This document shows, one piece after another, positions 44,800 to 63,627 of a stretch of 64,000 nt of DNA (positions within the stretch are counted from its first letter, which is position 1; each line of letters starts with the position of its first letter). The stretch comes from Paenibacillaceae bacterium. GTDB lineage: Bacteria; Bacillota; Bacilli; Paenibacillales; CANHGK01. Made by a program: the position numbers and the translations under genes. The notes below the pieces were generated by a model. That model saw only the letters and a list, made by a program, of their open reading frames with translations, searched no databases and had not been told where the DNA came from. The stretch is from positions 8,509 to 72,508 of the forward strand of contig CANHGK010000013.1 in NCBI GenBank assembly GCA_947460235.1, written 5' to 3'.

Positions 44800-44807
44800 T
44801 TGTTACA

Positions 44808-45464: not shown

Positions 45465-45467
45465 TTT

Positions 45468-45513: not shown

Positions 45514-45534
45514 GTTTGATTTGAAATCACAATG

Positions 45535-45563
45535 GAAGGAATCTCCCTCCAATTGTCGAATTT
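45535..45563 (+). promoter_or_regulatory. SigH-type promoter of the second kinase
   Basis: GAAGGAATC-N11-GTCGAATTT versus consensus RNAGGAWWW-N11/12-RNNGAATWW. Confidence 0.65.
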
Positions 45564-45601
45564 TAACATGAATTGTAAAATCAATTGATGGTGGTGTATT
45601 T

Positions 45602-48600: not shown

Positions 48601-49282
48601 ACAAATTTCAGATTTTCGCGTCGGTTTTGAGAAATTAAATTCGTTTATGCTCGCACCCTATTTGGCACATGTGTATCCATTACTTAAAAAGCTTCACGGG
48701 GAAGAATCATCTGAATGGATCGAACGTATTCAATCGTTAAGTTGGATTTCACCACTTGAATTAGAACAAGAACGTATGCGATCGGTGTTACCGGAACAAC
48801 CATTAACCATTCAAAATGACGTCGTATATAGTGAACGCGATTCGTTATTCGAATTAAAACAACATATTATGGATACTTTGCCACTTCAGGATACAAAAGA
48901 ATTAATTAGTGAAATTGAGCAATTATATTACTTTCCGTATCGAAGTTTATTTATTTCTTTGATTGAACGCTTTCCAAACGCCACGATGCAGGGCGGAGAA
49001 TGGACACTTGATTTGGATCCATGGGAATCTTGGGCAAGTATGATTTGTGATTCGATCTTGGAAGAAAGTTCAACACTTGATCGTTCTTTGTTAACATTAG
49101 GAATTACGATCTTACGTGAATCTCAACTTATGGATATCATCTTCCTTCTAGATGGCTTCACAATTACAGACGCTAACCTTGAACAAATCCAATTGCTAAC
49201 ATTGCGTTTTGGCGGTTCAACATTGGTTGAAACAAATAATCAAGAAATGGTGCTTAAATTTACATTTGCAATGTTTAATTAA
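45602..49282 (+). CDS. Hybrid sensor histidine kinase, paralog 2, with more eroded CheA-like tail
   Basis: TSHELRTPLHG, GNAIKFT, DTGIG, GGTGLGL, VDDEP..DVMMP..IKPF; C-terminal ~400 aa collinear with paralog 1. Confidence 0.88.
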   Translation: MRVLIMLILCIYTGYLSIAYAESTSSVQSMEKWMFSAGAVTSSTINSSKWSPLDKFSDHQTELQAANQIITYKTTLPTTNCKSCAIYIANRGYEIEIDGKLVATAGGGIKPVHFPMGKSQNLVHLDANEDGKTILIRMNNSVRKNVLELPIQYGQSENIIKNHMVEDAFTIRMAEFVIMVSIISLIMYFSMNRNYTYLTFAIAALNIGIFMFVRTPTSTLIWFESSPLSDILEYFGIYFLPITCWNYVRSIVSAPNWLHRLNLWIPSLFIVWILINWTLEGVPPFDFVMTGELILLFSFLCIISLLLFHGLKGDQNARLIGLLLGISGFLAIIETMTYVIGLPRINLTAFSSAFFIASQLCIFLNRVQRLNKHLNEQKIHLQNLNERLTNLNQLKDEFIANTSHELRTPLHGMIGLADAMLDGGSGTLTPAAKKNLEMIIASGRRLTNLVNDLLDFAKIRSNGLQLVIQPLHIFELIDSVVTMAKPTLGNKPVVLSNRIQMNTPLILADENRMQQMLHNLVGNAIKFTTSGRIEIAATWNEENVAITVLDTGIGIPAHKINQIFESFEQADGAIAREYGGTGLGLAITKQLALLQKGTIDVKSSVGDGSVFTLILPRATDTRINPTTSTEGTDNITSTGSSALSDFELLQLQRFNTSTVVHQEIIRNIVEETDDSISLQETKAVIWCVDDEPVNLQVLKNHLLMEGYDAHLFNDAIELLNAMETTERFPDLMIVDVMMPYMSGFELTRKLREQHHASELPIIILTAKSQSEDIIEGFTAGANDYIIKPFVKSELLARMELHLQLSKRHANLENQVKTNETAVKQMIASVAQAVLMFDSTLVISGEYTPICKSIIGKDPNGYPIQHILAANDEKMQKWFVSMFQDLFAATSIPNIETYFSLIPDQLEINEKLIGVKMQPVRNPNGKLMWIMVVLSDLSDQMLLDQHLAEEEKLLRMVVRIVSNAKAYETLVQNYRTFIDETLPKLAEETFDDQPSEHYLLTQISDFRVGFEKLNSFMLAPYLAHVYPLLKKLHGEESSEWIERIQSLSWISPLELEQERMRSVLPEQPLTIQNDVVYSERDSLFELKQHIMDTLPLQDTKELISEIEQLYYFPYRSLFISLIERFPNATMQGGEWTLDLDPWESWASMICDSILEESSTLDRSLLTLGITILRESQLMDIIFLLDGFTITDANLEQIQLLTLRFGGSTLVETNNQEMVLKFTFAMFN

Positions 49283-49320
49283 CCATGAAAGTGCTACAAA
49301 CTAGAAAATGTAAATAAAGG

Positions 49321-49367
49321 AAAAAGGTAATCACTCGCGAATATTACTTCGAGCGGTTACTTTTTTT
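49321..49367 (+). terminator. Intrinsic terminator
   Basis: aaaaaggtaatcactcg...cgagcggttacttttttt. Confidence 0.6.
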
Positions 49368-49384
49368 GTTAGGAGGCTTAACTT

Positions 49385-51298
49385 TTGATTAAACTTACAA
49401 ACTCGAAAAGCCTCATTTTGATGGTTAGCGTCTTTTTCATTCTAATTATAGGAGCAAGTAATGCATATGTTTCACATGCATATGCTGAAAATTCAGGAGC
49501 AGCTCCAATCAAGTTACGATGGGAATGGACGAGCGGTATCGTGACCCCTGAAACGAAGAACCTTGCAACATGGCAATTGATCAACTCATTAGAAGAATCA
49601 CCCCACGCTGTTTCAGAGGTCGGTCGTATTATTAGTTATCGACTTTCGATACCACCGTTGATGTGCGATCAATGTGTCATCTCAATTCACGATATTTACA
49701 GGAATTACGACATTTATTTGAACGGGAGATTATTTCATAACTTTGGAACAATTAATACGAACACCCCTGATTCATTAGGTAATCCGATTGAGCGGTTTCA
49801 TCTACCTAGTCAAACACCGATTGAATTGTTAATCGTCGTAAAGGGCTTGAAAAAGGACGTCGGAATTTATGGCCCCGTTTTTGTTGGTGATGCAGATGAG
49901 TTACTCCAAACCGATATGCGTAAAACCATGGCTTGGTTAATCGTTGTCGCATTCACTTTTTTTGCGAGTGTATATAATTTGATCGTATTTTTTCCGGTCC
50001 GCTGGGAACGTGTTGAATTATATTTCAGTATTACTGCACTAATTTCATCGGTATATCTCATATGCCGAATTGATTTGATACGATGGTTTGTCGATGCTCC
50101 GGTATTTTTTGATTTTACGGAATACATCTCATTTGATTTGATGGCACTATCGTGTTGGTTATACTTTTGTGAGTTTTTCTTGGCAAAACAACGTTGGGCC
50201 ACAGGTATCACTTTGGGATATTCGTTATTGATTGCGTACATTACCATCCAAACCATTACTGGCTCTCATTTACCTCATGAATATACGTCAATTGTCATCC
50301 TGTTAACTGCTTTTATTTTACTTTTGATGATCGTGATTAGCATCTTTGCATCATTCAAAAAACGTGAACATTCCCTTTTTTTCGTTGGTACATTTGGATT
50401 ATGCATTTTGTTATGTTTACTTGGACTTTATGAATCCGTTTGGGGAAACAATCAATTCGAATTAGGACCTTATATTTTGTTAACATTTGTTAGTTCACAA
50501 CTGTATTTACTATCAAGCCGCTCCAGACAATTGAATAAAACATTGAACACTCAAACCATCGAACTTGAACAAAAAAATCAAGATCTAATTAAGTTAGATA
50601 AAGTTAAAGATGAATTTTTGGCGATGACGTCCCATGAATTGCGCACGCCATTAAACGGAATTATCGGATTGTCTGAATCCCTAATCGAAGGTGCAGCAGG
50701 TCCGATCAATCGCGTCATGCGTGATAATTTACAGATGATCATGAACAGTGGAAAACGACTTGCCAATCTCGTCAATGATATTTTAGACATATCTCAAATG
50801 CGTATCAAAGGAATTCAACTAAAACGTGCTCCTTTGCATATCCGAAATATTACAGATCTCGTATCGCAAGCGCTACAACCCGTTTTGCGCGAACAAGTCA
50901 CATTGATCAATTCCATTGAATTAGGAACGCCAGAAATATACGGGGACAACAATCGACTCCAGCAAGTTTTATATAATTTATTCGGAAATGCGATGAAGTT
51001 TACACATATCGGCTCGATATCCGTTTGGACGACATGGGATACAAAATCCGTTCATTTACACATTAAAGATACGGGCATAGGCATTGCAACTGAAAAACAA
51101 GAAACAATCTTCCAACCTTTCGAACAAGCGGATTATACAATTGAACGCAGATATGGTGGCAACGGACTCGGGTTATCGATTTCTAAACAGTTGATTGAGT
51201 TACACGATGGGACGATCAAACTAAATTCTAAGCTCGGTGTCGGGTCAGAATTTATTATCTCGTTACCACGTGCAGATCATTATTTATTCAAAAAATAA
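49385..51298 (+). CDS. Sensor histidine kinase, paralog 3 (no REC domain)
   Basis: Same N-terminal extracellular and multi-TM layout; TSHELRTPLNG, GNAMKFT, DTGIG, GGNGLGL. Confidence 0.9.
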   Translation: MIKLTNSKSLILMVSVFFILIIGASNAYVSHAYAENSGAAPIKLRWEWTSGIVTPETKNLATWQLINSLEESPHAVSEVGRIISYRLSIPPLMCDQCVISIHDIYRNYDIYLNGRLFHNFGTINTNTPDSLGNPIERFHLPSQTPIELLIVVKGLKKDVGIYGPVFVGDADELLQTDMRKTMAWLIVVAFTFFASVYNLIVFFPVRWERVELYFSITALISSVYLICRIDLIRWFVDAPVFFDFTEYISFDLMALSCWLYFCEFFLAKQRWATGITLGYSLLIAYITIQTITGSHLPHEYTSIVILLTAFILLLMIVISIFASFKKREHSLFFVGTFGLCILLCLLGLYESVWGNNQFELGPYILLTFVSSQLYLLSSRSRQLNKTLNTQTIELEQKNQDLIKLDKVKDEFLAMTSHELRTPLNGIIGLSESLIEGAAGPINRVMRDNLQMIMNSGKRLANLVNDILDISQMRIKGIQLKRAPLHIRNITDLVSQALQPVLREQVTLINSIELGTPEIYGDNNRLQQVLYNLFGNAMKFTHIGSISVWTTWDTKSVHLHIKDTGIGIATEKQETIFQPFEQADYTIERRYGGNGLGLSISKQLIELHDGTIKLNSKLGVGSEFIISLPRADHYLFKK

Positions 51299-51348: not shown

Positions 51349-53592
51349 TTAATTTGCCAAATATGTTTCTTTACCTTGGTCTTTCGTTGCTTGGTGATTT
51401 ACGGTTGCTTCCATAATATCAGTAAAATTAACACTTTGCGGATTCATGTCTTTCCATGTTTGACCACTGTATTCTTGAAGTGGCCCTCGTCCAAATAATC
51501 GGTTCATCAGTAACGCTAATTCTCGGCGAGTCACTGTCGTTTTTATCTGCGTATCCGGTTCACCTAACCAAGATACTTCGCGTTTTGCCGATTGAACATT
51601 AGCAGAAGTCACTAAAAATTTAGCAATTAATTTCGATAGGATAAAACGAACATCATTGCGTGATACCTTTTGATCCGGACCGAATTTACCTTTACTTACT
51701 GCACTCAAAAAGTTCGTACGCACCGCAATATCCGCATAACCAACTAACCAATTATTATTTTTCATATCCGTAAAGACAAGCGCTTTAGAAGTGTTTGGAG
51801 CTTTCACGCCACTAATCCGAACGACTGCAGCTGCTAATTCGCCGCGAGTTAGTGCACGTTCAGGCTTAAATGTTTTATCTGGATAACCATATAAATAAAG
51901 GGTATGTGCAATTTTGACGGGTATAGGTTTGATCAGTACAGGGTTGATTTGAATTTCAACAACTGCAGGATTAGATAATTTTTTGCCGTCATCTACCGCA
52001 AATTCAAATCGATCGGTTCCAATAAATCCTGGATTCGGTACGTACTTATAAAATCCATTTTCAAAAAGTTCAACGGTTCCATTCAACGGGGCTTTTGTAA
52101 GCACATATTTTAAAACCGATGCATTTTCTCGTGTCGTTGTTCCCGTTAGTTGCCCTTCAAGTGTTTTCCCTTGATCGATTGTCGATTGTTGGTTCTGTGC
52201 TTGAGGAAGCGCAGTAATAAATACTTTGATTTCAATTGGTTTCGAGGTTTCTTTTCCATCATTGACAACCACCGTAAACAAATCGGATCCAGTACTCCCT
52301 GCGTTTGGTACGTAACGTAAAGAACCTGTTTTTGAGTCCACAGCTATACTCCCTTTTTGCGGGAAGCTTTGAAGTAAGTATTGCAATTCATCATTCTCAA
52401 CATCGGTTGCCTGAATCATAGCATTTACTGGTACTCCAAGCTCAGAAAGCAATGTTAATGGTTGACCTTCTGGTGCATCATTTACCGGGTTTATTTTGAT
52501 CGTATACGTCGCAGGTAAGGAATATACAATTCCATCATTTGCAACAACTTGAAATGAATCAGCACCCGAATAATTTTTATCTGGTGCATACGAAAATGCT
52601 CCTGTTACTTCGTTCGGTTCCAATTTCCCATGCGCTGGCTGTTCAAGGATTTTGTATGTTAACGTATTGCCGTCTACATCTGTTCCTTTTAACACGTCAA
52701 CAACCGGACCAGCATCTTCATCAATCGTATAACTTTTCGGAGCAATTTCAGGTTTGTGATTTTGGATATATGTTTTTGTAAGATCTATACCAGCAGGTCT
52801 GAATGTATGATCAAAATACAATTTACTAATATAATGATTTGCATATGCGCCGCCCGTTGCAGAAGTGAATCCTAAATAGACAGGTCCTGTCGGGAACATT
52901 GTCGCCAAATTTAAATTCGATGCCTTAACATTCGCTTCAACAGGTCGAACCGCTGTTGTAGAAATGCGCACTTCCATTTTTTTTGTATCACCATTATATT
53001 CAATCCAAACATGCTTCGTTTTTCCGTCATCGAGGACAATGCCCTGTTTCTCTAATGCACCCGCTGATGTGACAACAAGCGGTTTGTTTAAGTCACCATT
53101 CACATCAACTGCAATATGGTTACCATCTGGATCCCCAAATGCACTCGGGTTTAGCCAGGAGTCGAATTCAACACCAATGCTATTCGTCAAATCCAAGTAA
53201 CCGATACCGCCTCCATCTTTACCAACCACATTTGTTTTTTGGGCCAACACAAACACGATACCATCTGCCCCGCCATTGCCTGCATTCGTAATTTTCATCG
53301 TAAAATACGCACTAAACGATTGATTAGACTCCAATTGCAATGGATTTTTATAAAATGTTGAACCTGAAACATAAGGTTGGCTCGTCGTTAATTGAATCGA
53401 CCCATCATTTGGTCCTCCATTTAACTGGGTCGCCTCACCATTCAATACCCAATTCGTATCCTTGAATGAATCATATTTCAATTCAATCGGCTCATCCGCT
53501 GCAAATGCACTAGCATGTATGATGGTCATACCTAAAAAAGCTGTCGTCAAAAATAACGTTCGTTTCCACCATTTTTTCATTAATTTTTTCAC
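51349..53592 (-). CDS. Cell-surface protein: L-type (legume) lectin domain, three Ig/cadherin-like repeats, SLH domains
   Basis: Signal peptide; GADGIVFV, GGGIGY, GVEFDS, NHIAVD, YLGFTSATGG; repeats with YAPDKNYSGADSF / YVPNPGFIGTDRF; GYPDKTFKPERALTRGE. Confidence 0.85.
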   Translation of the reverse strand: MKKLMKKWWKRTLFLTTAFLGMTIIHASAFAADEPIELKYDSFKDTNWVLNGEATQLNGGPNDGSIQLTTSQPYVSGSTFYKNPLQLESNQSFSAYFTMKITNAGNGGADGIVFVLAQKTNVVGKDGGGIGYLDLTNSIGVEFDSWLNPSAFGDPDGNHIAVDVNGDLNKPLVVTSAGALEKQGIVLDDGKTKHVWIEYNGDTKKMEVRISTTAVRPVEANVKASNLNLATMFPTGPVYLGFTSATGGAYANHYISKLYFDHTFRPAGIDLTKTYIQNHKPEIAPKSYTIDEDAGPVVDVLKGTDVDGNTLTYKILEQPAHGKLEPNEVTGAFSYAPDKNYSGADSFQVVANDGIVYSLPATYTIKINPVNDAPEGQPLTLLSELGVPVNAMIQATDVENDELQYLLQSFPQKGSIAVDSKTGSLRYVPNAGSTGSDLFTVVVNDGKETSKPIEIKVFITALPQAQNQQSTIDQGKTLEGQLTGTTTRENASVLKYVLTKAPLNGTVELFENGFYKYVPNPGFIGTDRFEFAVDDGKKLSNPAVVEIQINPVLIKPIPVKIAHTLYLYGYPDKTFKPERALTRGELAAAVVRISGVKAPNTSKALVFTDMKNNNWLVGYADIAVRTNFLSAVSKGKFGPDQKVSRNDVRFILSKLIAKFLVTSANVQSAKREVSWLGEPDTQIKTTVTRRELALLMNRLFGRGPLQEYSGQTWKDMNPQSVNFTDIMEATVNHQATKDQGKETYLAN

Positions 53593-53742
53593 GATAATAC
53601 CTCCCAACAATCAGTTCAAACGTTTGCAATGCTATGGTATCTAATATATCACTTGTAGTAACCAATAAACAAATCCATAAATCGCAAAAAAACGACACAT
53701 TGTGAAATTCTGTGACAAGAATTTCAAACATGTCGGTACCCA

Positions 53743-55410
53743 TCATCCTGAGTTCACAAGATCTAAATCATATAGTTTTAACGCAACTTCAAGCATCAGA
53801 ATATGTTCGCCTTGCTCTAAATCTACGCAGAGCACTTTCTGTACACGTTCCATCCGATACAATACCGTATTATAGTGCGTAAATAATTGCTCTGCCGTTC
53901 GCCGAACATTACGATTTTGAGCAAAAAACATTTTCATCGTTTGAATTAATTGACTATTACTTTGTTGATCCGCCTCAATGAGTGGGTGCACATAGGTTTT
54001 GAGTAGTCTTCTCCGCTCGGGACTGTCTGCCAATTGCATGAGAATCGGAAACATTCCTAGTCGATCATACGTCACGATTTCACCAGTAAAACGACTTACA
54101 GGATACAATCTTGAGACGCGAATTGCCTCTTGAAAACTAATTGGCAAATCAACAGCTGAGCTGACGACATTGCCAAAACAAACGGCTTTTGCCATGGGTG
54201 CGATCGCTTCCTTTAACCAAGAGAGCAAATACTTCCCCCATTTTTCACGATTGATTTGCTCATCTTCCGAATATGCCATAACGATCGTTAATTCACCGTC
54301 CATCTGTACCATCCATAATGTCGAAGGTTCATATGGTTTTAATTTTCGCTGCTCAATGGATAGAAAATATGATATTTTTTCATGCATATCATCTAGGTTA
54401 ACAATCGCCACTACATACTTCGCAGCTTCTGGCAATGGACATCCGCATGCATCCGCCCGAAATCTTAAATCATTCATTGACGGAATGCGGCCCCAAAGCC
54501 AATCTTGAACAAAGGGATCACGATATTTCGTTTCAATTGCATATAGCGCATCCGAATTCATCATTTCAAGTGCAATTATCGATTTCACACGATCGATTGT
54601 TAACAAATCAACCGGTAAAAACGGCCCATTCCACTCAACCGCAATGAGCGCTGCTTGTTTGCGATTCGACAATTGAATAAAGATCGAATGGATCCGTACT
54701 TGTCGTCCGCCAATCCAAACGGTACGTAGCGGGTAGCCATTGACAAGATCCACTTCCCCGCGGCGAATCGCCGGGCGCACCCCATTTAACCAATCGCCAC
54801 TTGAACTCGCGAGTGCCTCCATAAACGATTCAGTACCTTGCGAGACACCACGCCAACGCCAACGTTCCGCATCTTCAATCCATATCAGCGGATTTCCAAG
54901 TACGGTTTCGAGCGTAACAAGCAGTTTCTCTATTCCTCCGCCTTCAAGCAATCCATTCGTAATCAATTGAAGACGTTCTTGTAATTTGGACAATTGCTCC
55001 ACTTCTTGGTGCATCAAATGTTCCATGACATCACGCGTAATTTCGGAAAATACCGTATCCGTCGGTAACTCAAAAATCGGAAATTGAAGTCGATTCGCAA
55101 GGGCAATCGCTGCTTCAGGAATTTCTTGAATAAACCGCTTTGTTTTGATCGCTAACGCCGCAACACCCCGTTTGTGCAATTCAGGGATTAAATGCATAAG
55201 CGTCATCGGTTGATCGCGAAACGGATATCCAGTGGTCAGTAACAACTCACCTGGTCTCACCCATTCTGCGACATCTGGAACTTCCATCACGTTCACGTGA
55301 TTGATAATTCGGTTCAACCCCGCGTTCCCAGCAATACATTTTGCATTCTGAAAAGGTGATAAAGATAGCACTTCAGAACAGGTCATTTCTTTTTCATTCC
55401 ATCCCATCAC
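53743..55410 (-). CDS. PucR-family transcriptional regulator
   Basis: N-terminal PucR domain (VNVMEVPDV..WVRPGELLLTTG); C-terminal HTH (TAEQLFTHYNTVLYRMER). Confidence 0.92.
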   Translation of the reverse strand: MMGWNEKEMTCSEVLSLSPFQNAKCIAGNAGLNRIINHVNVMEVPDVAEWVRPGELLLTTGYPFRDQPMTLMHLIPELHKRGVAALAIKTKRFIQEIPEAAIALANRLQFPIFELPTDTVFSEITRDVMEHLMHQEVEQLSKLQERLQLITNGLLEGGGIEKLLVTLETVLGNPLIWIEDAERWRWRGVSQGTESFMEALASSSGDWLNGVRPAIRRGEVDLVNGYPLRTVWIGGRQVRIHSIFIQLSNRKQAALIAVEWNGPFLPVDLLTIDRVKSIIALEMMNSDALYAIETKYRDPFVQDWLWGRIPSMNDLRFRADACGCPLPEAAKYVVAIVNLDDMHEKISYFLSIEQRKLKPYEPSTLWMVQMDGELTIVMAYSEDEQINREKWGKYLLSWLKEAIAPMAKAVCFGNVVSSAVDLPISFQEAIRVSRLYPVSRFTGEIVTYDRLGMFPILMQLADSPERRRLLKTYVHPLIEADQQSNSQLIQTMKMFFAQNRNVRRTAEQLFTHYNTVLYRMERVQKVLCVDLEQGEHILMLEVALKLYDLDLVNSG

Positions 55411-55430
55411 CGCTCACCTCAATTCACAAC

Positions 55431-56096
55431 TTATTGAATCGCTTGAATAATCTTGTCGCAATTCGTTGTCCAACCAAAAATCCCACCTTGCTGGTGAATC
55501 ATCTGAATCGCCGCTTCATGGTCCGCAATATCATATGCCGCTGTTGCATCCTCAACGACCAAACATTCATAACCTCGATCATTCGCTTCTCGTACTGTTG
55601 TATGCACGCATACATGGGTTGTCACGCCAGTAACGATCAGCGATGTAATTCCATTCCTTTGTAAAATAGCCTCAAGATCCGTTCGATAAAATGCACCCTT
55701 ACCTGGTTTATCTATGATCCATTCGTCTTCGATGGGATACAGTTCTTCGACGATATCATGTCCAAATTCACCACGCACGAGGATTCGCCCCATCGGACCA
55801 ACATCACCAATGCCTGCTCCTTTTGCTTTACTTCTAGCCAACTTACTTGGAGGACAATCAGACAAATCTGGTAGATGTCCTTCCCGCGTATGAATAATCA
55901 TCCCACCATGTTTACGAAACAAGTTCAATAATGCGGCAATAGCCGGGATGATCCGGCGAGTTGGAGTAATATCATTCCCCAATCGTTCACCGAATCCACC
56001 CGGCGCGCAAAAATCACGCTGCATATCAATGATCACCAATGCCGTATTTTTAATATCACAAGTAAAGTCGTATGGTAACGCTTTAATTACCGTCAT
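55431..56096 (-). CDS. Isochorismatase-family cysteine hydrolase, triuret hydrolase (TrtA)-like variant
   Basis: IDMQRDF..GGFGERLGND, HTREGH, DKPGKGAFY, TTHVC, AAYD, QGGIFGW; D-K-C triad intact. Confidence 0.75.
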   Translation of the reverse strand: MTVIKALPYDFTCDIKNTALVIIDMQRDFCAPGGFGERLGNDITPTRRIIPAIAALLNLFRKHGGMIIHTREGHLPDLSDCPPSKLARSKAKGAGIGDVGPMGRILVRGEFGHDIVEELYPIEDEWIIDKPGKGAFYRTDLEAILQRNGITSLIVTGVTTHVCVHTTVREANDRGYECLVVEDATAAYDIADHEAAIQMIHQQGGIFGWTTNCDKIIQAIQ

Positions 56097-56098
56097 AA

Positions 56099-56554
56099 TC
56101 AATATCCTTCAATCGGCACTTCGAGCGGGATATCCACGCGTGTCGTTTTGAAAAACTCATTACTAACCTTGCCTTCCACCGTTGGCACGAAAATGCTCAA
56201 TTGCTCCGTCGGTTCGGCGTCATCATTACGTACCGAGTGAATCACACCTGCGGGAACGAGAAATGTGTCTCCCGCTTGAAAACTATGCCATTCCCCATTC
56301 AAATACAAACGTACTTTGCCCTTTGTAATATGGATGATTTCTGCAACATTATGATAATGTGGCAACACCGCTCCGCCCACATCGATTTTTTCCCATAAAA
56401 TAGAACTCATCAAAATATTCATTCCATCTGCTTCTTGCGCACTGGTCACTTCGCGATGATGCAAACCCGGATGATCTTCGAATTTGCCCCATGGCATCGT
56501 TGCACCTATTTTTACTTGTGTCATTCCTGCCGTTGAAGGCGCAGTATGTTGCAT
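56099..56554 (-). CDS. Cupin domain protein
   Basis: PHYHNVAE...GD...VPAGVIH metal-binding cupin motifs. Confidence 0.88.
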   Translation of the reverse strand: MQHTAPSTAGMTQVKIGATMPWGKFEDHPGLHHREVTSAQEADGMNILMSSILWEKIDVGGAVLPHYHNVAEIIHITKGKVRLYLNGEWHSFQAGDTFLVPAGVIHSVRNDDAEPTEQLSIFVPTVEGKVSNEFFKTTRVDIPLEVPIEGY

Positions 56555-56556
56555 GA

Positions 56557-57264
56557 TTATTTTCCTCCTGTCGTCAGTGGAATGAGGGAATTCAGCACCT
56601 TTATTACTTCTACTGATGAAGAAACGGCACCGAACACACCGCCTTGCATCGTCACCATTTTGAGCGCAGCCAAATGATTACCTTCATCGGTTGCCCCCGT
56701 ACAATCTTCCAAGATCAAACATTCAAACCCTCTGTCGTTCGCCTCTCGCATTGTCGTATGCACGCATACATCGGTTGTTATCCCAGTCAAAATTAAATGC
56801 GAAATTCCTTTATTCCGAAGTACGAGTTCTAGGTCGGTTGCGTAAAAACTACCTTTGCCCGGTTTATCAATAATCATTTCTCCAGGAAGTGGATACAGTT
56901 CAGGGATGATGTCCCAGCCTTTTTCGCCGCGAACTAATATTCTACCGCACGGTCCAGCACTTCCAATACCTGCACCAATTTGTTCGCTGCGCCAGCGTTT
57001 ATTTGGCGGCAAATCGGATAAATCGGGTTTATGTCCTTCTCGCGTATGAATAATCGTCAATTTTGGAATTTGTCTTGCTGCTTCAAGTAGTTTACTGATT
57101 GGCTCTATCGCTCTTGCCGTAAGGCTAATGTCATAGCCCATTTGATCGACATAGCCACCTTTTCCGCAAAAGTCCATTTGCATATCAATGACGATGAGTG
57201 CAGTTTTGGACGGTTCGAATGCCCCGTCATACGGCCAAACATAAGGTGTTGCGTTCACTTGCAT
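56557..57264 (-). CDS. biuH: Biuret amidohydrolase
   Basis: [63 protein letters not shown]; near-identical to Rhizobium BiuH motifs as recalled. Confidence 0.88.
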
Positions 57265-57346
57265 CGAAAGAACGCTCCTTTCTTAAGCGAAAGCCAGTGC
57301 CTATTGCTAAGCACCGGCCAGCTTCACGTTTCAATGTGTCAAAACA

Positions 57347-58507
57347 TCACTTCGGAATGCTTCCGATTACGTTCTCTGCTAGGTAATCCATTTTCTCGAG
57401 TTCCTCGACTGGAGGTTGTTTGCCTGCTTCAATTTTGACCGCACCACTTTGATCCTTCAAGCCTGCATCGAACGGTTTGAATTCACCTTTTACGATTTTA
57501 TCGTGCAAATCAGTGACGAGCGTTTGAACATCTTCAGGTACGGAACTGCCGAATGGTGCCAACTCAACTACACCAGTGTCAATGCCTGCACGGAAGCGTG
57601 CATCAAATTTACTACCTTTGAATTTTCCATCAGCAACAGTTTTCACCATTTCGGAATACAATTTCGTCCAGTTCCAAATAGAACCTGTCAACCAACCTTT
57701 TGGCGCCAATTCATGCGCATCTGCATGGTAACCAACGGACATTGCGCCGCGTTTTTCAGCAGTTTCAATAATTGTTTTCGTGCAATCTTGGTGCTGTGCA
57801 AGTACGTCAACACCGGAATCGATCAATGTGTTCGCTGCGTTTGCTTGTAATGAAGGGTCACACCAGCTGCCTGCGAATACTGCCGTAACTGTCGCATTTG
57901 GATTCACAGATTTTGCACCTGCAGCAAATGCATTAATGTTCAACAATACTTGCGGAATCGGGAAAGCGACAACGAATCCAAGTTTATTCGTTTTCGTCAT
58001 TTTACCTGCGGTAACACCAGTCAAATATACTGTTTCCCAGATATTTCCGAAATATGTCCCTAAGTTTTCAGCCGTTTTCAAACCACCTTGATGTAAGAAC
58101 ACAACGTCTGGATGACGCTTTGCAACTTCTAACGCTGGGTCAAGATGACCGTAAGATGTAGGGAAAATAATTTTTGCGCCATTACGAATCATCTCTTCCA
58201 TCACGCGCTCAGCTTCCGCAGTTTCTGGGACGTTTTCTTTGCGTAATACTTTCAAATCTGGAAAATCTTTTTCAACGGCTTCAGAGCCAATGTATGCTGC
58301 TTGGTTATACCCATGGTCGTCTTTCGCTCCCACAAAGAGGAATCCAACTGCTGAACCGCCAGTACCAGGTGCTGTTGATGCTGCCGTTGCTTCAGGTTTT
58401 GCTGCATCCTCTGTTTTTGTTGCGCCGCTCGAACAAGCGCTGACTACCACCATTACCGCGATCATTAATGATGCAACTAACGTACGTTTGAACTTGAATG
58501 TGTTCAT
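57347..58507 (-). CDS. BMP-family ABC substrate-binding lipoprotein
   Basis: Lipobox VSAC; DHGYNQA, TSYGH, INAFAAGA, DVLAQHQD, W.W motif. Confidence 0.9.
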   Translation of the reverse strand: MNTFKFKRTLVASLMIAVMVVVSACSSGATKTEDAAKPEATAASTAPGTGGSAVGFLFVGAKDDHGYNQAAYIGSEAVEKDFPDLKVLRKENVPETAEAERVMEEMIRNGAKIIFPTSYGHLDPALEVAKRHPDVVFLHQGGLKTAENLGTYFGNIWETVYLTGVTAGKMTKTNKLGFVVAFPIPQVLLNINAFAAGAKSVNPNATVTAVFAGSWCDPSLQANAANTLIDSGVDVLAQHQDCTKTIIETAEKRGAMSVGYHADAHELAPKGWLTGSIWNWTKLYSEMVKTVADGKFKGSKFDARFRAGIDTGVVELAPFGSSVPEDVQTLVTDLHDKIVKGEFKPFDAGLKDQSGAVKIEAGKQPPVEELEKMDYLAENVIGSIPK

Positions 58508-58559
58508 GTGTTCCACTCCTCTTTTTTTGTTTGCAAACCTAAGCGACAACGACCGTCTT

Positions 58560-59483
58560 TCACGTTTGTACCGCCCCCCTCCGCTCTGCAACACGTCGCA
58601 AAGCCTCAGGCATCGCACCGATTCCTTGCTTGCGTCGTTCGACCAAAAATAAGACGAACAACGTTAGCAAATACGGAGTCATTAATAAAATGAAGGGAGA
58701 AACGGCATAGCCGCGAGCCTGTAAAATTAGTTGTAGCGCCTGTGCGCCGCCAAACAAGTACGCTCCGAGCATCGCCCGAACCGGCTTCCATGAAGCAAAA
58801 ATCACGAGTGCAACTGCGATGATCCCGCGTCCAGCGGTCATATTCTCGACCCATGCCATCGTAAACGCCATCGATAATTGAGCGCCGCCGAGACCAGCTA
58901 ACATGCCTCCTGCGGTAACACCCAAATAACGGATCAACCGTGGTGAATGTCCCATCGCATAGACGACCTCTTCACGTTCACCGACCGCTCTGAGCAGTAT
59001 CCCCCATCTCGTTTTGAACAAAAATACCCCAACGAGCGGACCAATCACATATGCTGCGTATGTTAAAACATCATGATTAAATAAAATCGGACCAAGAAAT
59101 GGAATGTCTGATAAATAAGGAATCGGAATGACCTGCAGTCCTTGAATTTGTTTGGTCACATAGTCTTGTCCGAAATATGCTGTAATCCCGAGTCCAAAAA
59201 ACATCACTGCCAGTCCGGATGCAAGTTGATTCGCACCCATCGTCACAACGAGAAATGCATGGATAAGTCCTGCGAGTCCTCCAGCAAGTAACGCTGCCAA
59301 AATCCCAAGTGCTGCGCTTCCGGTATCTGCTGTTACCGCAAATCCAGCAAATGCCCCCATAATCATCGATCCTTCAACACCAAGATTGATGACACCTGAT
59401 CGCTCACCAACCAATTCGCCAATTGAACCATACAATACAGAAGTTCCTGCTCTAACTGCACCCGTTAATAATGCCTCAATCAT
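58560..59483 (-). CDS. ABC permease (nucleoside/purine BMP type)
   Basis: ERSGVINLGVEG, LRAVGE, GRGIIAVALVIF, PYLLT. Confidence 0.92.
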   Translation of the reverse strand: MIEALLTGAVRAGTSVLYGSIGELVGERSGVINLGVEGSMIMGAFAGFAVTADTGSAALGILAALLAGGLAGLIHAFLVVTMGANQLASGLAVMFFGLGITAYFGQDYVTKQIQGLQVIPIPYLSDIPFLGPILFNHDVLTYAAYVIGPLVGVFLFKTRWGILLRAVGEREEVVYAMGHSPRLIRYLGVTAGGMLAGLGGAQLSMAFTMAWVENMTAGRGIIAVALVIFASWKPVRAMLGAYLFGGAQALQLILQARGYAVSPFILLMTPYLLTLFVLFLVERRKQGIGAMPEALRRVAERRGAVQT

Positions 59484-60532
59484 TTGGTCGCCCTCCTTTC
59501 AGCAGCTAACACCGCAAACAAGATCAGCGCCATAAACACATTTACAATCGATGAAGGTAAACCCGAAATCATCTCCAGTGTATTGCCTGAAACACTGATC
59601 GCCGCCAGTAAAAACGAACTAAAAATTAACAAGATCGGCCGATTCCATGCGGTCCATGCCGCCAAAAATCCGAAGTACCCATATCCAATCCCAGTCATCG
59701 GTCTTAAATGGCCTTCAATTCCAGAAATTTCGATCATCCCGGCAATTCCAGCCATCGCTCCGCCGAACAACAACATCCAAAACTGAATGCTTTTCACATT
59801 CAAACCAGTCTGCATCGCTGCTGTTGGATTTCCGCCAACGACCTTCGTGATAAAACCTAATCGTGTAAATTTGAACAACAACCAGATGATAAAAGTAATG
59901 GCGATCGCAATAAAAATCCCAATATGCAGCCTGCTATCTCCAATCATCGGTAATCTCAAGTTATCGATCAACCGCGGTGAAAACGGCCAGTTACCGGAAT
60001 TCGGATCTTTGAATGCTCCGAATACAAAATACGCAAGTGTATAACTAGCTATATAATTCAATAAAAGGGTTGTAATCGTTTCATTCATCGATGCAAATCG
60101 TTTCATCGCTGCCGCGAACATCGCCCATAGTGCTCCACCGATTGCTCCAGCAATGACCATCAGCGGAATGCCGAGCCATGCAGGCATCTCATTGAACAAA
60201 TACACGCCAGATGCCGTTGACACCAGTGCGCCGATCGTAAGTTGACCTTCTCCTCCAACATTCACAAGTCCTACCCTTGCAGGTATCGCAACCGCAAGAC
60301 CTGTCAGAAGGAACGGTGTCATCTTGATCAACACTTCGCCAAATCCGTACCAATCACCAAAGATCGAATCAAGCATCGATTGATAGACCTCAATCGGATC
60401 GGCTTTTTGTGACATTAAAAACAAAGTGTACAAAATGAGCGGAGTGAGCACGACCCATAAACCAGTTTGGATATGATAGCCAAGCTTTCCAAAGGTAAAT
60501 CGTTTGCGAATCGTATTTACGAGTGTGGTCAT
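59480..60532 (-). CDS. ABC permease (nucleoside/purine BMP type)
   Basis: NVGGEGQ, NETITTLLLNY, GGAMAGIAG..E. Confidence 0.92.
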   Translation of the reverse strand: MTTLVNTIRKRFTFGKLGYHIQTGLWVVLTPLILYTLFLMSQKADPIEVYQSMLDSIFGDWYGFGEVLIKMTPFLLTGLAVAIPARVGLVNVGGEGQLTIGALVSTASGVYLFNEMPAWLGIPLMVIAGAIGGALWAMFAAAMKRFASMNETITTLLLNYIASYTLAYFVFGAFKDPNSGNWPFSPRLIDNLRLPMIGDSRLHIGIFIAIAITFIIWLLFKFTRLGFITKVVGGNPTAAMQTGLNVKSIQFWMLLFGGAMAGIAGMIEISGIEGHLRPMTGIGYGYFGFLAAWTAWNRPILLIFSSFLLAAISVSGNTLEMISGLPSSIVNVFMALILFAVLAAERRATK

Positions 60533-62055
60533 GATGCTTCACCACCTTTTAGCATCAGTTGACCGAGTTCCTGTGCATTCACTACTCTTGGATCATAAGG
60601 ACCAAGCACCTTCTGGTGACTAAGCACGTACATGCGATCCGACAATTCATACAGTTCCGTTAAATTTTCTGTGATCAGTAAAATTGATGTGCCTTGATTT
60701 CGAAGTTCAAGTAGTAAATTTTGTGTTTCTCTCGTCGTGACGACATCAAGTCCTCGCGTCGGATACGAAACGATGAGTAATTTCGGCTTGCGTGACATCG
60801 CCCGCGCTAACACCATACGCTGTATATTTCCACCTGATAGTTGATCCGCCCGGCGCTTCGGATCGGCAACGGATAATCTGCGATATTCAGGAAGCGCACG
60901 TACGCTTCGCTCGGCCGCTTGCCAATTGATGCCGAGTTTCGTATAGGGAACAGCAATTCCGGTTAGGACCATATGTTCCAAAATCGTTAACCCACTAATA
61001 ATCGATTCTTGAACTGGATCTTCCGGAATATACGAATACCCTTTTTCAATCCAAGCTTTTACCGCTTTTCCCGTCATATCTGCTCCATCAATGAACACTT
61101 TGCCTTGTTTTGGTACGCGAAGCCCATATGCACTTTCCGCAAGTTCCAATTGTCCGTTTCCGGAAATACCAGCCACACCCACAATTTCACCGGGATGAAT
61201 TTCAAAATTGATATGACTTAATATTGGTTTGCCATGATCATTTAACAACGTCACATCCGCAAGTTGGAACACCGGTAACTCTTGATTCGTTTTCACTTCA
61301 TGAGCAAGTGGTTCCGGCATCTTCTGATTGCCAATCATTTCACGAATCAATACGTCTTCCCGGAAAGGAGCTCGCTCATCTCGCGCTGCTTGGAACGTTA
61401 CTTTCCCTTGCCTTAGCACCGTTACACGATCCGCACATGCCGTCACTTCAGAAATTTTATGCGTAATCAAAACGACTGCGAATCCATCATCTCTAAGCTT
61501 TCGAAGCATCGAGAGAAAACCTTCCACTTCAATCGGTGTAAGTACACTCGTTGGTTCGTCAAATATTATTAATTTGGGATGTCCACCAAGTAGCGCCTTA
61601 CAAATCTCTACACGCTGCTGTTGCCCCAAATCAAGTTCCCACACATACGAAGCTGTATTTACCGCAATTCCATATCGTTCTTGTAGTTCCGACATTTTCG
61701 TTCGGATGTTTTCCCGGCGAATGCGCGGGCCCATTCCATCCATACCGAGCGCTACATTTTCTAATACCGTCAGCGCTGGGATCAACCGAAAATCTTGAAA
61801 CACCATTCCAACCCCATGTGCACGTGCCTGTGCAGGTGGATGTAACTGAACATTTGTTCCTTCCCATTTCAATACTCCCTCATCGGGAACATAAACTCCG
61901 TATAACACCTTCATTAAGGTACTTTTGCCTGCACCATTCTCACCTAAGATCGCGTGAATCTCACCGGCATAAAACGATACGTTCACATGATCAAGTGCGA
62001 TAAAACTTCCAAACTGTTTGGTTATCCCTGAACACTGCAACAACGGTACGGTCAT
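60529..62055 (-). CDS. ABC ATP-binding protein (two-domain, CUT2/nucleoside type)
   Basis: GENGAGKST, FDEPT, ITHK, GISGNGQ, LSGGNIQR, PTRGLD. Confidence 0.94.
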   Translation of the reverse strand: MTVPLLQCSGITKQFGSFIALDHVNVSFYAGEIHAILGENGAGKSTLMKVLYGVYVPDEGVLKWEGTNVQLHPPAQARAHGVGMVFQDFRLIPALTVLENVALGMDGMGPRIRRENIRTKMSELQERYGIAVNTASYVWELDLGQQQRVEICKALLGGHPKLIIFDEPTSVLTPIEVEGFLSMLRKLRDDGFAVVLITHKISEVTACADRVTVLRQGKVTFQAARDERAPFREDVLIREMIGNQKMPEPLAHEVKTNQELPVFQLADVTLLNDHGKPILSHINFEIHPGEIVGVAGISGNGQLELAESAYGLRVPKQGKVFIDGADMTGKAVKAWIEKGYSYIPEDPVQESIISGLTILEHMVLTGIAVPYTKLGINWQAAERSVRALPEYRRLSVADPKRRADQLSGGNIQRMVLARAMSRKPKLLIVSYPTRGLDVVTTRETQNLLLELRNQGTSILLITENLTELYELSDRMYVLSHQKVLGPYDPRVVNAQELGQLMLKGGEAS

Positions 62056-62076
62056 CGGGCTCACCACCTTATGTTA

Positions 62077-62093
62077 TGTTATGTTATTTAACA
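62077..62093. promoter_or_regulatory. TnrA/GlnR box
   Basis: TGTTA-N7-TAACA, exact match to TGTNA-N7-TNACA. Confidence 0.7.
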
Positions 62094-62121
62094 TTTTTAG
62101 CTTCGTGTAACTTATATTTAG

Positions 62122-62151
62122 ATTATATGTTAACTAATTGCACATTGTCAC
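62122..62151 (-). promoter_or_regulatory. SigA promoter of the ABC-biuH operon
   Basis: GTGACA-N18-TATAAT. Confidence 0.55.
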
Positions 62152-62211
62152 TATAAAAAACTACAAATAATTTACGATTCGTTTGTATTTTTATTGAACA
62201 TCCGTTTTTGA

Positions 62212-62228
62212 TGTTATTTTATATTACA
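62212..62228. promoter_or_regulatory. TnrA/GlnR box
   Basis: TGTTA-N7-TTACA, exact match. Confidence 0.7.
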
Positions 62229-62290
62229 TAATATTTGAATAAACAGAAAAAAGCCCTCTAACACGAACGACTCATGTCAGAGGACTTCTC

Positions 62291-62647
62291 TCATGTTTTT
62301 GCCATTACAACCAACGCCATCGCTTCCTTGCATGTGGAACGAAACCAATCCGCACGAAGTTGGATTCGATATACATATCCGCGTTGCACAAATTCAGCCT
62401 GCACCCCGCCAAGTCCATCCGGATCCACACGACTGATCTTCACCGACTGCCTAAGCAATTCTTTCCTCGAACGATTCAAGTACTCATGCGCTAGCTTCAT
62501 CCAGCATTCATATTGACGCGCTAACGCATCCGCCTGATGCAATGTACTTCCTTTCACTTTCGCCGCATCATCCGCCAATTCGTCGAGTATCACCGTCCAC
62601 TTCAACACATCTCGCACCGCCTCTGTCGCTTCACCTGGCGCCAACAT
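62291..62647 (-). CDS. YhjD-like SOS-associated hypothetical protein
   Basis: GGAGG RBS before ATG 62647; KELLRQSVKI...EFVQRGY pattern; LexA box upstream. Confidence 0.6.
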   Translation of the reverse strand: MLAPGEATEAVRDVLKWTVILDELADDAAKVKGSTLHQADALARQYECWMKLAHEYLNRSRKELLRQSVKISRVDPDGLGGVQAEFVQRGYVYRIQLRADWFRSTCKEAMALVVMAKT

Positions 62648-62692
62648 GTGTCCACCTCCAACATACCTCTGCATATGTATATCATACCATAC

Positions 62693-62706
62693 AGAACGTA
62701 TGTTCG
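62693..62706. promoter_or_regulatory. LexA (DinR/Cheo) SOS box
   Basis: AGAACGTATGTTCG matches GAAC-N4-GTTC and lies within a TTTACG-N18-TATGAT promoter on the minus strand. Confidence 0.8.
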
Positions 62707-62715
62707 TAAATATCA

Positions 62716-63468
62716 TCAATATTGTAATTCCAATTCCATTTCACGAATATTACTAACTCCAAAAAAATGCCTGACATATTGTTCATCCATTTGCGTTAAA
62801 TCAAGCATCGTAAAAAGCACATAACTATCAAAATCAGGAGATTTTGCTGGTTCGCCGTAAATGCGGCAACCCATTTGCAAATAACCTTTCAAGAGTGGTG
62901 GGACTTGTCGTAAAAATATACGCAAATCAACTTGTTCTGGTGTCGTTTCATCATAAGTAATTCCCGATGGGAACATCGGACGAATCATCGGCTGCGTTTG
63001 AATCACTTGTTGACCTTTGAGTAACCCATATAACTTTTGCATGGAAATGCCGTGAATTTCCGTAAACAAACTTGTACATCCAAACAAACGTGTGGCCTTC
63101 ACGTTGCGCATATAATCCGCAATGCCTTTCCATAACAGCTGAATCACTTTTCCGTTCCGATATTCTGGCAAAATACAACTTCTACCGAGTTCCACAGATT
63201 TGGCCATCCATCCACGGATCGGTGACAAATCAAACATCGTCTCACTATAAAACCCGGTTGCCTCTCCTCGAGGACCCGGTAACAAGCGGTAGCAACCAAC
63301 AACTTTTCCAGTCATCACTTCTTGAACCATCAAATGATCCGACCACGCATCCCACCGATCGACATCGGTTGTTGATACCGACATCTCCCGCACAAATACG
63401 TCATGACGCAATAGATATACACGCTCCATATCTGCAGGTGTCGTCGCTAACTTTACTTGTAACATCAT
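62716..63468 (-). CDS. GNAT N-acyltransferase of the OlsB/'putative hemolysin' type
   Basis: LRHDVF..E, DVDRWDAWSDHL, VGCYRLL, FYSETMFDL, VELGRSCILPEYR, LFGCTS, PPLLKGYLQMG. Confidence 0.82.
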   Translation of the reverse strand: MMLQVKLATTPADMERVYLLRHDVFVREMSVSTTDVDRWDAWSDHLMVQEVMTGKVVGCYRLLPGPRGEATGFYSETMFDLSPIRGWMAKSVELGRSCILPEYRNGKVIQLLWKGIADYMRNVKATRLFGCTSLFTEIHGISMQKLYGLLKGQQVIQTQPMIRPMFPSGITYDETTPEQVDLRIFLRQVPPLLKGYLQMGCRIYGEPAKSPDFDSYVLFTMLDLTQMDEQYVRHFFGVSNIREMELELQY

Positions 63469-63627
63469 TCGTTCATCCGCCTCCGAACCAAATATGATTG
63501 TTTTCAAAATCGTATCAAACATTCATTAAATCGATTCGCGAAGCAGATAAAACGAATATTAAGCTGCGGAAACATTGTAAATAAACGAAAACGGCCGCCC
63601 CTCTATAAGGGACGGACCGCTTCAAAC

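Follow-up and report, generated by a model that had tools for sequence, protein, structure and literature searches.

The eight-gene cluster at positions 53743-62067 of a 64,000-nucleotide stretch of a Paenibacillaceae genome (NCBI GenBank assembly GCA_947460235.1, contig CANHGK010000013.1, positions 8,509 to 72,508; the whole stretch is referred to here as the window) raises the question of which nitrogen compound its products import, by what route this compound is broken down, and how the process is controlled in a spore-forming bacterium. The genes are co-directional, as had been stated in the original prediction made from the sequence, and all of them lie on the minus strand, between a terminator-like hairpin (62246-62292) and a neighbouring gene at 53610. 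The coordinates show that consecutive genes overlap by 4 bases or are separated by gaps of 2-82 bases. In reading order, they encode a two-domain ATP-binding cassette (ABC) transporter ATPase, two permeases, a BMP/PnrA-like substrate-binding protein, the biuret amidohydrolase BiuH, a small metal cupin, a second hydrolase resembling the triuret hydrolase TrtA, and a PucR-family transcriptional regulator. The cluster is likely to be a nitrogen-starvation operon that imports triuret/biuret-type linear ureides and removes their amide nitrogen in a stepwise fashion. The host genome consists of 2.72 Mb in 42 contigs, is 99.2% complete, and is the sole genome of its GTDB family. Its description as that of a spore-former was upheld by a Spo0A score of 362.7 bits, versus a cut-off of 200, and by the presence of SpoVAC, SpoVAD, and YqfD inside the window.

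According to the route proposed here, the BMP-type ABC system would import the substrate, and the TrtA-like hydrolase, judged from its family membership, would convert triuret to carboxybiuret and ammonia. The metal cupin, for which gene-neighbourhood statistics suggest a role, would then speed the loss of CO2 from carboxybiuret to yield biuret, and BiuH, again by family membership, would convert biuret to allophanate and ammonia. Allophanate would decay by itself to urea and CO2, allowing urease to free the last two nitrogens. Two levels of control are envisaged. GlnR would act through two boxes flanking the promoter, of which, by analogy, the distal one would activate expression under nitrogen scarcity and the proximal one would repress it under plenty, while the PucR-family protein would serve as a substrate-specific regulator.

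The 235-residue isochorismatase-family protein encoded at 56557-57264 (minus strand) is assigned as the biuret amidohydrolase BiuH by every test run, and the conversion of biuret to allophanate is predicted from this family membership. It scored 411.8 bits with the equivalog model NF050097, above the curated cut-off of 370, matched the Rhizobium BiuH of PDB entry 6AZO with 373 bits, and is 72% identical to this crystallised enzyme, with which it also groups in a BiuH clade of 48 rows (84 in the Shimodaira-Hasegawa-like approximate likelihood ratio test, SH-aLRT). Its signature residues, YYSDTQV, follow the BiuH consensus at all seven positions, i.e., six discriminating residues and a shared Gln. 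For the two hydrolases of the cluster, RutB models gave 100-118 bits and nicotinamidase models gave 40-49 bits, compared with 300-412 bits for the BiuH model.

The second isochorismatase-family enzyme is a 223-residue cysteine hydrolase encoded at 55431-56102 (minus strand; alternative start ATG at 56096). Only the cupin gene lies between biuH and this gene, an arrangement that recurs in 12 related loci. The protein scored 300 bits with NF050097, under the BiuH cut-off, and its best PDB match was the Herbaspirillum TrtA, 6XIX (268 bits), followed by BiuH structures at 252 and 244 bits. Positions F35, N41, A134, E160, Y187, and I205 separate TrtA from the BiuH consensus (Tassoulas et al., PMC7948467). 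The signature of the window protein, FNAHYQI, compared with FNAEYQI in the TrtA consensus, contains five of the six TrtA-specific residues, with His replacing E160. In an alignment to 6XIX, the catalytic residues Asp24, Lys129, and Cys162 and the substrate contacts F29, E72, K132, and Q202 are kept, and they are invariant in 20 members of the clade to which this protein belongs.

The phylogenetic position of the TrtA-like protein came from a tree of 154 family members (IQ-TREE, LG+G4, quick search), taken from three plasmid records and from 99 loci, 19 of which belong to the order Paenibacillales and 80 of which came from a genome scan with a TrtA alignment. The TrtA-type sequences, including the window protein, formed one clade of 102 rows (SH-aLRT 99), which splits into a Glu-type clade (77 rows, SH-aLRT 99) that includes the Rhizobium homolog, itself matching 6XIX with 282 bits, and a His-type clade (25 rows, SH-aLRT 88). 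The latter consists of the window protein, 19 Paenibacillales-order orthologs, four other Bacillota sequences, and one Eggerthellaceae sequence. "TrtA-like" is a fair name for the window protein, which is a candidate member of the characterised TrtA family, and triuret hydrolase activity is probable from its sequence features. The pairing of BiuH with a TrtA-like enzyme, a central element of the original prediction, is borne out, BiuH lying over its equivalog cut-off and the second hydrolase on the TrtA side of the tree.

The importer encoded upstream of the hydrolases (all on the minus strand) is complete. The ATPase gene (60529-62067) encodes two ABC domains (PF00005 twice) and scored 405 bits with NF047930, below the cut-off of 670. 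It is followed by two permease genes identified by Pfam and NCBIfam as BPD_transp_2 (59480-60532 and 58560-59483) and by the gene for the BMP/PnrA-like binding protein (57347-58507; PF02608, 184 bits). Reading by eye, translation of the ATPase more likely begins at the ATG at 62055, which is 8 nucleotides past an AAGGTGG ribosome-binding site, and the start at 58507 is the more likely one for the binding protein, where it would produce a lipoprotein-type signal peptide. The ATPase is 49-54% identical in 16 orthologous loci, and the binding protein and its counterpart in a Rhizobium biuH/trtA cluster on plasmid pRL10 share 43% identity across 349 residues. The binding protein is predicted to bind triuret/biuret-type ureides.

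Systems of this kind, including a cluster architecture with a BMP importer, are already known in print. On pRL10 of Rhizobium johnstonii (leguminosarum) 3841, the source of the BiuH structures 6AZO and 5BK6, the gene order is GntR, BMP binding protein, permease, permease, formamidase, BiuH, the cyanuric acid hydrolase AtzD, ABC ATPase, TrtA homolog, and a cupin of 117 residues. Both clusters are co-directional and share the binding protein, two permeases, the two-domain ATPase, BiuH, a TrtA-type paralog, and a small metal cupin. They differ in gene order, in the presence of atzD and an in-cluster formamidase in Rhizobium, neither of which occurs in the window cluster, in the type of regulator (GntR rather than PucR), in the type of TrtA (Glu rather than His), and in the cupin, which belongs to Cupin_7 in Rhizobium and Cupin_2 in the window, the profile match between the two being non-significant. 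A Sulfitobacter plasmid contains the same set as pRL10 along with atzF, and its Cupin_7 protein aligns with the window cupin at ~30% identity over 54 residues only.

Other characterised or proposed systems share parts of this design. The trtA-biuH-atzF operon of Herbaspirillum sp. BH-1 (TrtA structures 6XIX and 6XJE), together with trtB, represents the same proposed chemistry, whereas the window cluster is devoid of atzF and of an AtzH-like gene, with a cupin in its place, and has His at position E160 of TrtA. In ammonia oxidisers and comammox Nitrospira, a BMP-type ABC transporter (bmpA-nupABC) adjoins biuH and a putative trtA, and a role of these contigs in organic nitrogen use has been proposed (PMC12625717, 2025). 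The nitrifier contigs differ in that they carry atzF and, in some cases, trtB or allFGHK; the available part of that report mentions no cupin, PucR, or GlnR boxes. In the atzDGEHF system of Pseudomonas sp. ADP, AtzH decarboxylates an N-carboxyl ureide, which is the type of step proposed for the window cupin (PMC6219798), although the NTF2 fold of AtzH is unrelated to that of the cupin, the route bypasses biuret, and atzD, atzE, and atzH are not in the host genome. The importer and the cupin are no sign of a different route, because both belong to the known Rhizobium cluster. The original prediction had taken a cupin and a purine-type importer, present instead of the missing enzymes, as a departure from the known route; this did not hold, and it is also contradicted by the finding of AtzF inside six related clusters and alongside the cupin in 9 of 33 cupin-bearing loci. 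The true variant features are the His-type TrtA clade, a Cupin_2 protein in place of a Cupin_7 or AtzH-like one, control by PucR and GlnR, and an AtzF-free ending.

The distribution of the cluster was explored by an ortholog search of 401 genomes of the order, i.e., the host and 400 others, in which all 19 matching loci were mapped with the window genes. TrtA-like orthologs of 65-73% identity were found in 19 other genomes, representing eight families. All eight genes occur in the window order in 10 of these loci, three of them with a formamidase gene between those for the binding protein and BiuH, and two further loci are consistent with this order but are cut by contig ends. Five loci have the order BiuH-AtzF-ATPase-permease-permease-BMP-cupin-TrtA-like-PucR, one of them with a formamidase gene after the BMP gene; one locus contains two BiuH genes and AtzF, and the last, on a short contig, has the TrtA-like and BMP genes only. 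The TrtA-like gene is linked to BiuH in 18 of the 19 loci, the cupin is present in 18, the PucR-family gene is last in 16, and AtzD is found in none. AtzF is located inside the cluster in six loci, and all four of the proteins tested scored 622-644 bits, versus a cut-off of 511. The literature searched, which left most subscription journals outside, yielded no triuret/biuret cluster from Bacillota. A formamidase (NF009803, ~559 bits) is frequent in trtA/biuH clusters of both Paenibacillales and Proteobacteria (L028, L029, L037, and L044; L055 and L048), and the cluster context offers no explanation of its role in ureide breakdown. The formamidase gene of the host is situated away from the cluster (G000:C4:55907-56809; L143:3872-4894), beside a sensor kinase and a chemotaxis receptor, and with no GlnR box nearby.

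The function of the cupin is the least conventional element of the proposed route. This 151-residue Cupin_2 protein, encoded at 56099-56554 (minus strand; PF07883, 59.6 bits), contains His-x-His-x3-Glu and His metal ligands (H66, H68, E72, and H106) that are invariant in 26 homologs. Its AlphaFold2 model is a confident β-barrel (predicted local distance difference test score, 90.6), and the closest folds found by Foldseek were the dimethylsulfoniopropionate (DMSP) lyase DddK, the Mn cupin TM1459, and RemF. A protein search returned 106 relative clusters, all labelled "cupin" or generic, the named ones belonging to Cohnella, Paenibacillus, Lysinibacillus, and further Bacilli. Only generic cupins were likewise returned by a protein-atlas search and when PDB sequences were searched with a profile, and tblastn against plasmids gave weak matches in unrelated contexts. 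Longer, fused forms of the cupin were looked for and not found, which is weak evidence. In Rhizobium and Sulfitobacter, the cupins come from another Pfam family, Cupin_7 (ChrR-like, PF12973), and can hardly be aligned to the window protein. The 760 relatives of the Rhizobium-type cupin are mostly named "cupin" or "anti-sigma factor ChrR"; the label "allophanate hydrolase" on a few old records was taken as annotation noise. In the literature searched, nothing was found linking carboxybiuret or biuret to cupins.

Gene neighbourhoods were more informative. When the 99 loci were scanned for accessory genes with hidden Markov models, and by tblastn as well, a Cupin_2-type gene was present in 19, a Cupin_7-type gene in 14, and an AtzH-like gene in 14, and no locus of the 99 contained both a cupin and an AtzH-like gene. 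Exactly one accessory accompanied 37 of the 43 loci with TrtA-type and BiuH-type genes (19 Cupin_2, 11 Cupin_7, and 7 AtzH-like), compared with an accessory in nine of the 55 loci with a TrtA-type gene alone. The cupin and AtzH-like options both occur within the Rhizobiaceae, in otherwise equal clusters. The carboxybiuret decarboxylase TrtB is inferred to be an AtzH-like NTF2 protein (PF11533), because AtzH-like domains are fused or adjacent to TrtA, because AtzH-like genes lie near AtzD, and because AtzH strips the N-carboxyl group from a linear ureide (PMC6219798). The fusion, a 358-residue open frame in a metagenome-assembled genome of Massilia sp. (L098:1478-2554), hints that the hydrolase and a decarboxylating partner work together. 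In another locus, an AtzH-like gene directly follows TrtA, and in six of 10 AtzD loci from the Burkholderiaceae family an AtzH-like gene lies within ~6 kb of AtzD, with no cupin found there. The search of this family was centred on a Massilia genome, and Herbaspirillum, the source of trtB, presumably belongs to the family as well. TrtB itself may already have been described as a homolog of AtzH.

The cupin has the Cupin_2 fold rather than the NTF2 fold of AtzH-like proteins, and no AtzH-like gene was found in the host genome by tblastn. Given the mutual exclusion of cupins and AtzH-like proteins across the 99 loci, and given that 37 of the 43 TrtA+BiuH loci have one of the two, the cupin probably acts as a carboxybiuret decarboxylase that is not homologous to TrtB and stands in for it. 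If TrtB were instead the Cupin_7 protein, this prediction for the window cupin would only become stronger, and the AtzH-like protein would then be the stand-in. Two other assignments were considered and rejected, namely that the cupin is TrtB itself, given the AtzH-like domains that are fused or adjacent to TrtA and near AtzD without a cupin, and that it replaces AtzF, given its co-occurrence with AtzF in 9 of 33 cupin-bearing loci.

Several observations weigh against a triuret/biuret operon with a decarboxylating cupin. Those that concern the 223-residue hydrolase would fit a His-type clade acting on another ureide or acyl-urea, e.g., one derived from purines or pyrimidines, with BiuH acting on the downstream product, an explanation that is unlikely but deserves consideration. 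His replaces E160 in all 25 members of the clade, and Phe replaces Y187 in 21 of the 25. TrtA specificity is set by second-shell residues, its second-best substrate is formylurea, and the Y187T variant had <10% activity, Y187F not being among the variants tested in the available part of that study (PMC7948467). The preference of the window protein for the TrtA structure over BiuH is narrow (268 versus 252 bits), and this protein shares about as much sequence identity with the neighbouring BiuH (56%) as with TrtA homologs of Proteobacteria (54-56%). Its clade is sister to, and outside, the Glu-type clade with the Rhizobium homolog, in a tree that was rooted on three very long distant branches and from which the characterised Herbaspirillum TrtA itself was left out. 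Four non-Paenibacillales members of the clade adjoin xanthine-type permease and AllF/AllG genes, with no BiuH at these loci. However, Glu-type TrtA homologs are found in the same two contexts, i.e., with a BMP importer and BiuH or with a xanthine permease and oxalurate genes, and context therefore fails to separate the clades. Furthermore, the E160D variant of TrtA retained 50% activity, although His was never tested according to the available part of that report (PMC7948467). All of the direct substrate contacts and five of the six discriminating residues are TrtA-like, and the gene is linked to BiuH in all but one of the 19 loci of the order. The best NCBIfam models of the four transporter genes, parts of a "putative B6 ABC transporter," raise a different doubt, and BMP/PnrA proteins are best known as nucleoside receptors. 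Nevertheless, salvage of purine nucleosides or a B6 vitamer, with generic hydrolases of the RutB or nicotinamidase type, is very improbable. All four scores are far below the cut-offs (86 versus 400 bits for the binding protein), the hydrolases score much higher with the BiuH model than with RutB or nicotinamidase models, and the binding protein resembles that of the Rhizobium biuret cluster. The first description of BiuH came from cyanuric acid catabolism, and atzD is present in the Rhizobium cluster, but a remnant of s-triazine/cyanuric acid herbicide degradation is scarcely credible, as no cyanuric acid hydrolase was found in the genome by Pfam or tblastn, or in the 19 related loci. In addition, most biuH genes are regarded as independent of atzD (PMC7948467). 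With respect to expression, no RNA run containing 53743-62300 was listed among the database matches, which were DNA metagenomes only.

The remaining doubts concern the cupin, for which a role other than carboxybiuret decarboxylation has a little less than an even chance. Its target might be a different intermediate (allophanate or formylurea, for example), or it might hydrolyze a ureide in the manner of ureidoglycine aminohydrolase cupins or function as a small-molecule sensor. Models of ureidoglycine aminohydrolase gave the sole function-bearing hints, and these matches are very weak (E ~5e-4 to 9e-4, far below the cut-offs). In sequence, the cupin shows no link to ureide decarboxylases, and its nearest folds are a DMSP lyase and an uncharacterised Mn cupin. 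In Verrucomicrobia, the Cupin_7 gene adjoins BiuH rather than TrtA. Carboxybiuret decarboxylates spontaneously with a half-life of ~20 min (PMC7948467), and an enzyme is not strictly needed; six of the 43 TrtA+BiuH loci are without any accessory protein. The fold of TrtB is itself a deduction made here, and the 99 loci are mutually related and non-independent, many of them cut by contig ends. On the other hand, cupins and AtzH-like proteins are mutually exclusive and both are strongly enriched at TrtA+BiuH loci, the co-occurrence of AtzF with cupins argues against removal of allophanate by the cupin, and an invariant, full His/His/Glu/His metal site fits an enzyme better than a passive sensor. 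The most inclusive form of the preferred reading is that two unrelated cupin families, Cupin_2 in Bacillota and Cupin_7 in Rhizobiales, Roseobacteraceae, Cyanobacteria, and Verrucomicrobia, are carboxybiuret decarboxylases that replace AtzH-like TrtB and, with a His-type TrtA, give a GlnR/PucR-controlled, urease-ending triuret pathway in endospore-formers; all of these elements together are put forward tentatively, with clearly less than even confidence. As part of this combined reading, the substrate of a lake-water bacterium could be amoebal triuret. Triuret has been reported as crystals in freshwater amoebae (PMC7948467, introduction), and its origin by purine oxidation is a published hypothesis (PMC7948467).

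The His-type gene also occurs outside the Paenibacillales, in a Peptoclostridium acidaminophilum plasmid (L047), in Allofournierella, in Paraliobacillus, and in an Eggerthellaceae genome (L056-L058 included). At these loci, it lies between two xanthine/uracil-type permease genes and adjoins AllF/AllG, of the oxalurate/oxamate carbamoyltransferase route; AllH and carbamate kinase (AllK) are present in three of the four. A PucR-type gene is located upstream in three of the four, being annotated in L047 and represented by weak tblastn matches (22-24% identity) in L056 and L058, both from other Bacillota. Glu-type TrtA homologs from several phyla share this xanthine-permease/oxalurate context. Together, these loci point to a second route for the TrtA product, which might yield ATP. 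A protein annotated as a "cysteine hydrolase" that shares 55% identity with the window TrtA-like protein is present in ~90 Escherichia plasmid records, of which all listed rows are E. coli, mostly from poultry, pigs, and people.

The fate of allophanate in the host appears to depend on genes outside of the cluster. The original prediction noted that no allophanate hydrolase, amidase, or cyanuric acid hydrolase is encoded in the cluster, and it proposed a genome search for atzF and urease. The absence of these enzymes from the cluster was confirmed, and AtzF and AtzD were not found elsewhere in the 99.2% complete genome. The best score with the AtzF model TIGR02713 was 194 bits, versus a cut-off of 511, and came from GatA, the sole amidase-signature match in the genome (626 bits on the gatA model). 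Queries with AtzF, AtzD, and AtzH-like sequences in tblastn searches of the whole genome returned only the GatA locus. AtzD gave no match by Pfam or tblastn; Pfam control genomes gave none either, but among 201 Burkholderiaceae-family genomes the model detected AtzD in 10. The same genome contains ureABC, ureG, and urtABCDE. Allophanate is unstable under physiological conditions and forms urea and CO2, carboxybiuret is likewise unstable and forms biuret, and the fate of allophanate in Rhizobium 3841 is given as unknown (PMC6219798). Ten genomes with the AtzF-free cluster type could be compared: AtzF is encoded elsewhere in six, is split into two adjacent pieces in one, and is missing from three, two of which are only 79-81% complete while the third, of 2.5 Mb, is 99% complete. 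Urease is present in all three. In view of the urease and the lack of AtzF in the host, the instability of allophanate, and the urease present in each of the three AtzF-less relatives, spontaneous decay of allophanate to urea is probable, and urease would then hydrolyze this urea. Genes for Cupin_7 proteins, xanthine-type permeases, and AllFGHK/oxalurate metabolism could not be detected in this genome by tblastn, a search that did not extend to uricase, xanthine dehydrogenase, or allantoinase.

Nitrogen control of the operon through predicted GlnR boxes is well supported by comparison of promoter sequences. Two perfect TGTNAN7TNACA boxes, located 135 bp apart upstream of the ATPase gene, flank a sigma-A-type promoter, GTGACA-18-TATAAT (62151-62122, minus strand; 11 of 12 matches), which is the best promoter-like site within 53500-62800. 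Box 1 (TGTAATATAAAATAACA, minus strand; 62212-62228), the predicted activating site, ends 60 nucleotides upstream of the -35 element. Box 2 (TGTTAAATAACATAACA, minus strand; 62077-62093), the predicted repressing site, begins ~22 nucleotides downstream of where transcription is predicted to start, immediately ahead of the ribosome-binding site. Beyond box 1, the intrinsic-terminator-like hairpin (62246-62292, minus strand), consisting of a 20-pair stem and a T-rich tail, follows the upstream gene and marks the upstream operon boundary. The window as a whole contains five such boxes versus 1.56 expected, a number reached in 1 of 100 shuffles, and the genome contains 51 perfect boxes, with no excess over composition.

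The boxes of this promoter appear genuine in view of their conservation: 15 of 18 orthologous promoters have at least one perfect box within 400 bp upstream of the ATPase gene, an outcome that agrees with the TnrA/GlnR boxes named in the original prediction. The proximal box lies 59-109 nucleotides before the ATPase match in 15 of the 18 orthologous loci, and the upstream box is found at the equivalent position in nine. Seven of the 15 have two boxes at a distance of 137-156 bp, and several loci contain no other box in 20 kb. The presumed ligand of these sites is encoded by a glnR-glnA pair, in which a 139-residue MerR-type protein, read here as GlnR, is encoded directly upstream of glnA; its best NCBIfam match is the TnrA model (74.5 bits, below the cut-off). 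A comparable arrangement is found at the nif promoter of Paenibacillus polymyxa WLY78, where two TGTNAN7TNACA-type sites also flank one promoter. There, GlnR activates from site I, 58 bp upstream of the -35 element. From site II, located 24 bp downstream of the start and 118 bp from site I, it represses together with feedback-inhibited glutamine synthetase (PMC6191146). The two systems differ in their target operons and in that nif site I is degenerate, whereas both window boxes match the full consensus, and the window sites are known from sequence alone.

Additional box pairs were observed in the divergent ureABC/urtABCDE intergenic region (G000:C5:84910-85010) and upstream of a NitT/TauT-type ABC transporter (G000:C8:20650-20771) with an SsuA-family binding protein, which also matches, less strongly, a model for a putative urea-ABC binding protein. 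Both the transporter and the ure/urt region are probable further members of the GlnR regulon. A third perfect match of the window, TGTGAAATTCTGTGACA (53701-53717), lies between the pucR stop codon and the start of a surface-protein gene; it overlaps a weak promoter-like site, and its half-sites also resemble the CRP/Fnr-type TGTGA motif.

The second predicted regulator is encoded by the last gene of the cluster (53743-55410, minus strand), 20 nucleotides after the trtA-like gene. Its assignment in the original prediction to the PucR family was substantiated by an N-terminal PF07905 domain (136.1 bits), a GGDEF-like PF17853 domain (29 bits), and an HTH_30 domain, PF13556 (63.1 bits), and it reached no NCBIfam equivalog cut-off.

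The G+C content of the cluster is 45.3%, compared with 41.6% for the genome; 4% of same-size windows are equally high, and G+C at third codon positions is ordinary. Base composition is not decisive with respect to horizontal transfer. DNA nearly identical to 53743-62300 (66-94% of sampled words) was present in freshwater/lake-water metagenome runs from two studies, one of which may be the source of the assembly, and the host seems to be represented in metagenomes alone. Upstream of the operon, at 62291-63522, are genes for a 142-residue protein without a family match and a 268-residue GNAT protein that is related to OlsB, an ornithine-lipid N-acyltransferase, with a score under the cut-off (120 bits). 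In locus L033, a similar GNAT of 35% identity is encoded downstream of the cluster. On the other side, 51349-53610 encodes a large surface protein with a legume-lectin domain, tandem-95/cadherin-like repeats, and SLH anchoring. A second tandem-95-repeat protein is encoded at G000:C8:18129-20660, just upstream of the boxed ABC transporter on that contig. Just upstream of the surface-protein gene, at 41002-51298, are three consecutive genes for large sensor kinases, two of which are hybrid kinases with receiver domains and one of which has a 7TMR-DISM domain, along with a gene for a stand-alone receiver protein.

Both triuret and biuret occur as impurities of fertilisers and may also arise naturally when urate is oxidised, and only in a few Proteobacteria has their degradation been elucidated. 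The locus described here extends the pathway to endospore-forming Bacillota, in ~5% of the sampled genomes of the order, with its own regulatory logic. The cupin also sits unexplained in the model Rhizobium cluster, and if it speeds the conversion of carboxybiuret to biuret, it would constitute a clean case of non-homologous enzymes for one step and would allow better annotation of hundreds of genes now described as encoding a "cupin domain-containing protein." Should the His-type hydrolase act on a different substrate, it could lead to a natural ureide that has so far gone unrecognised.

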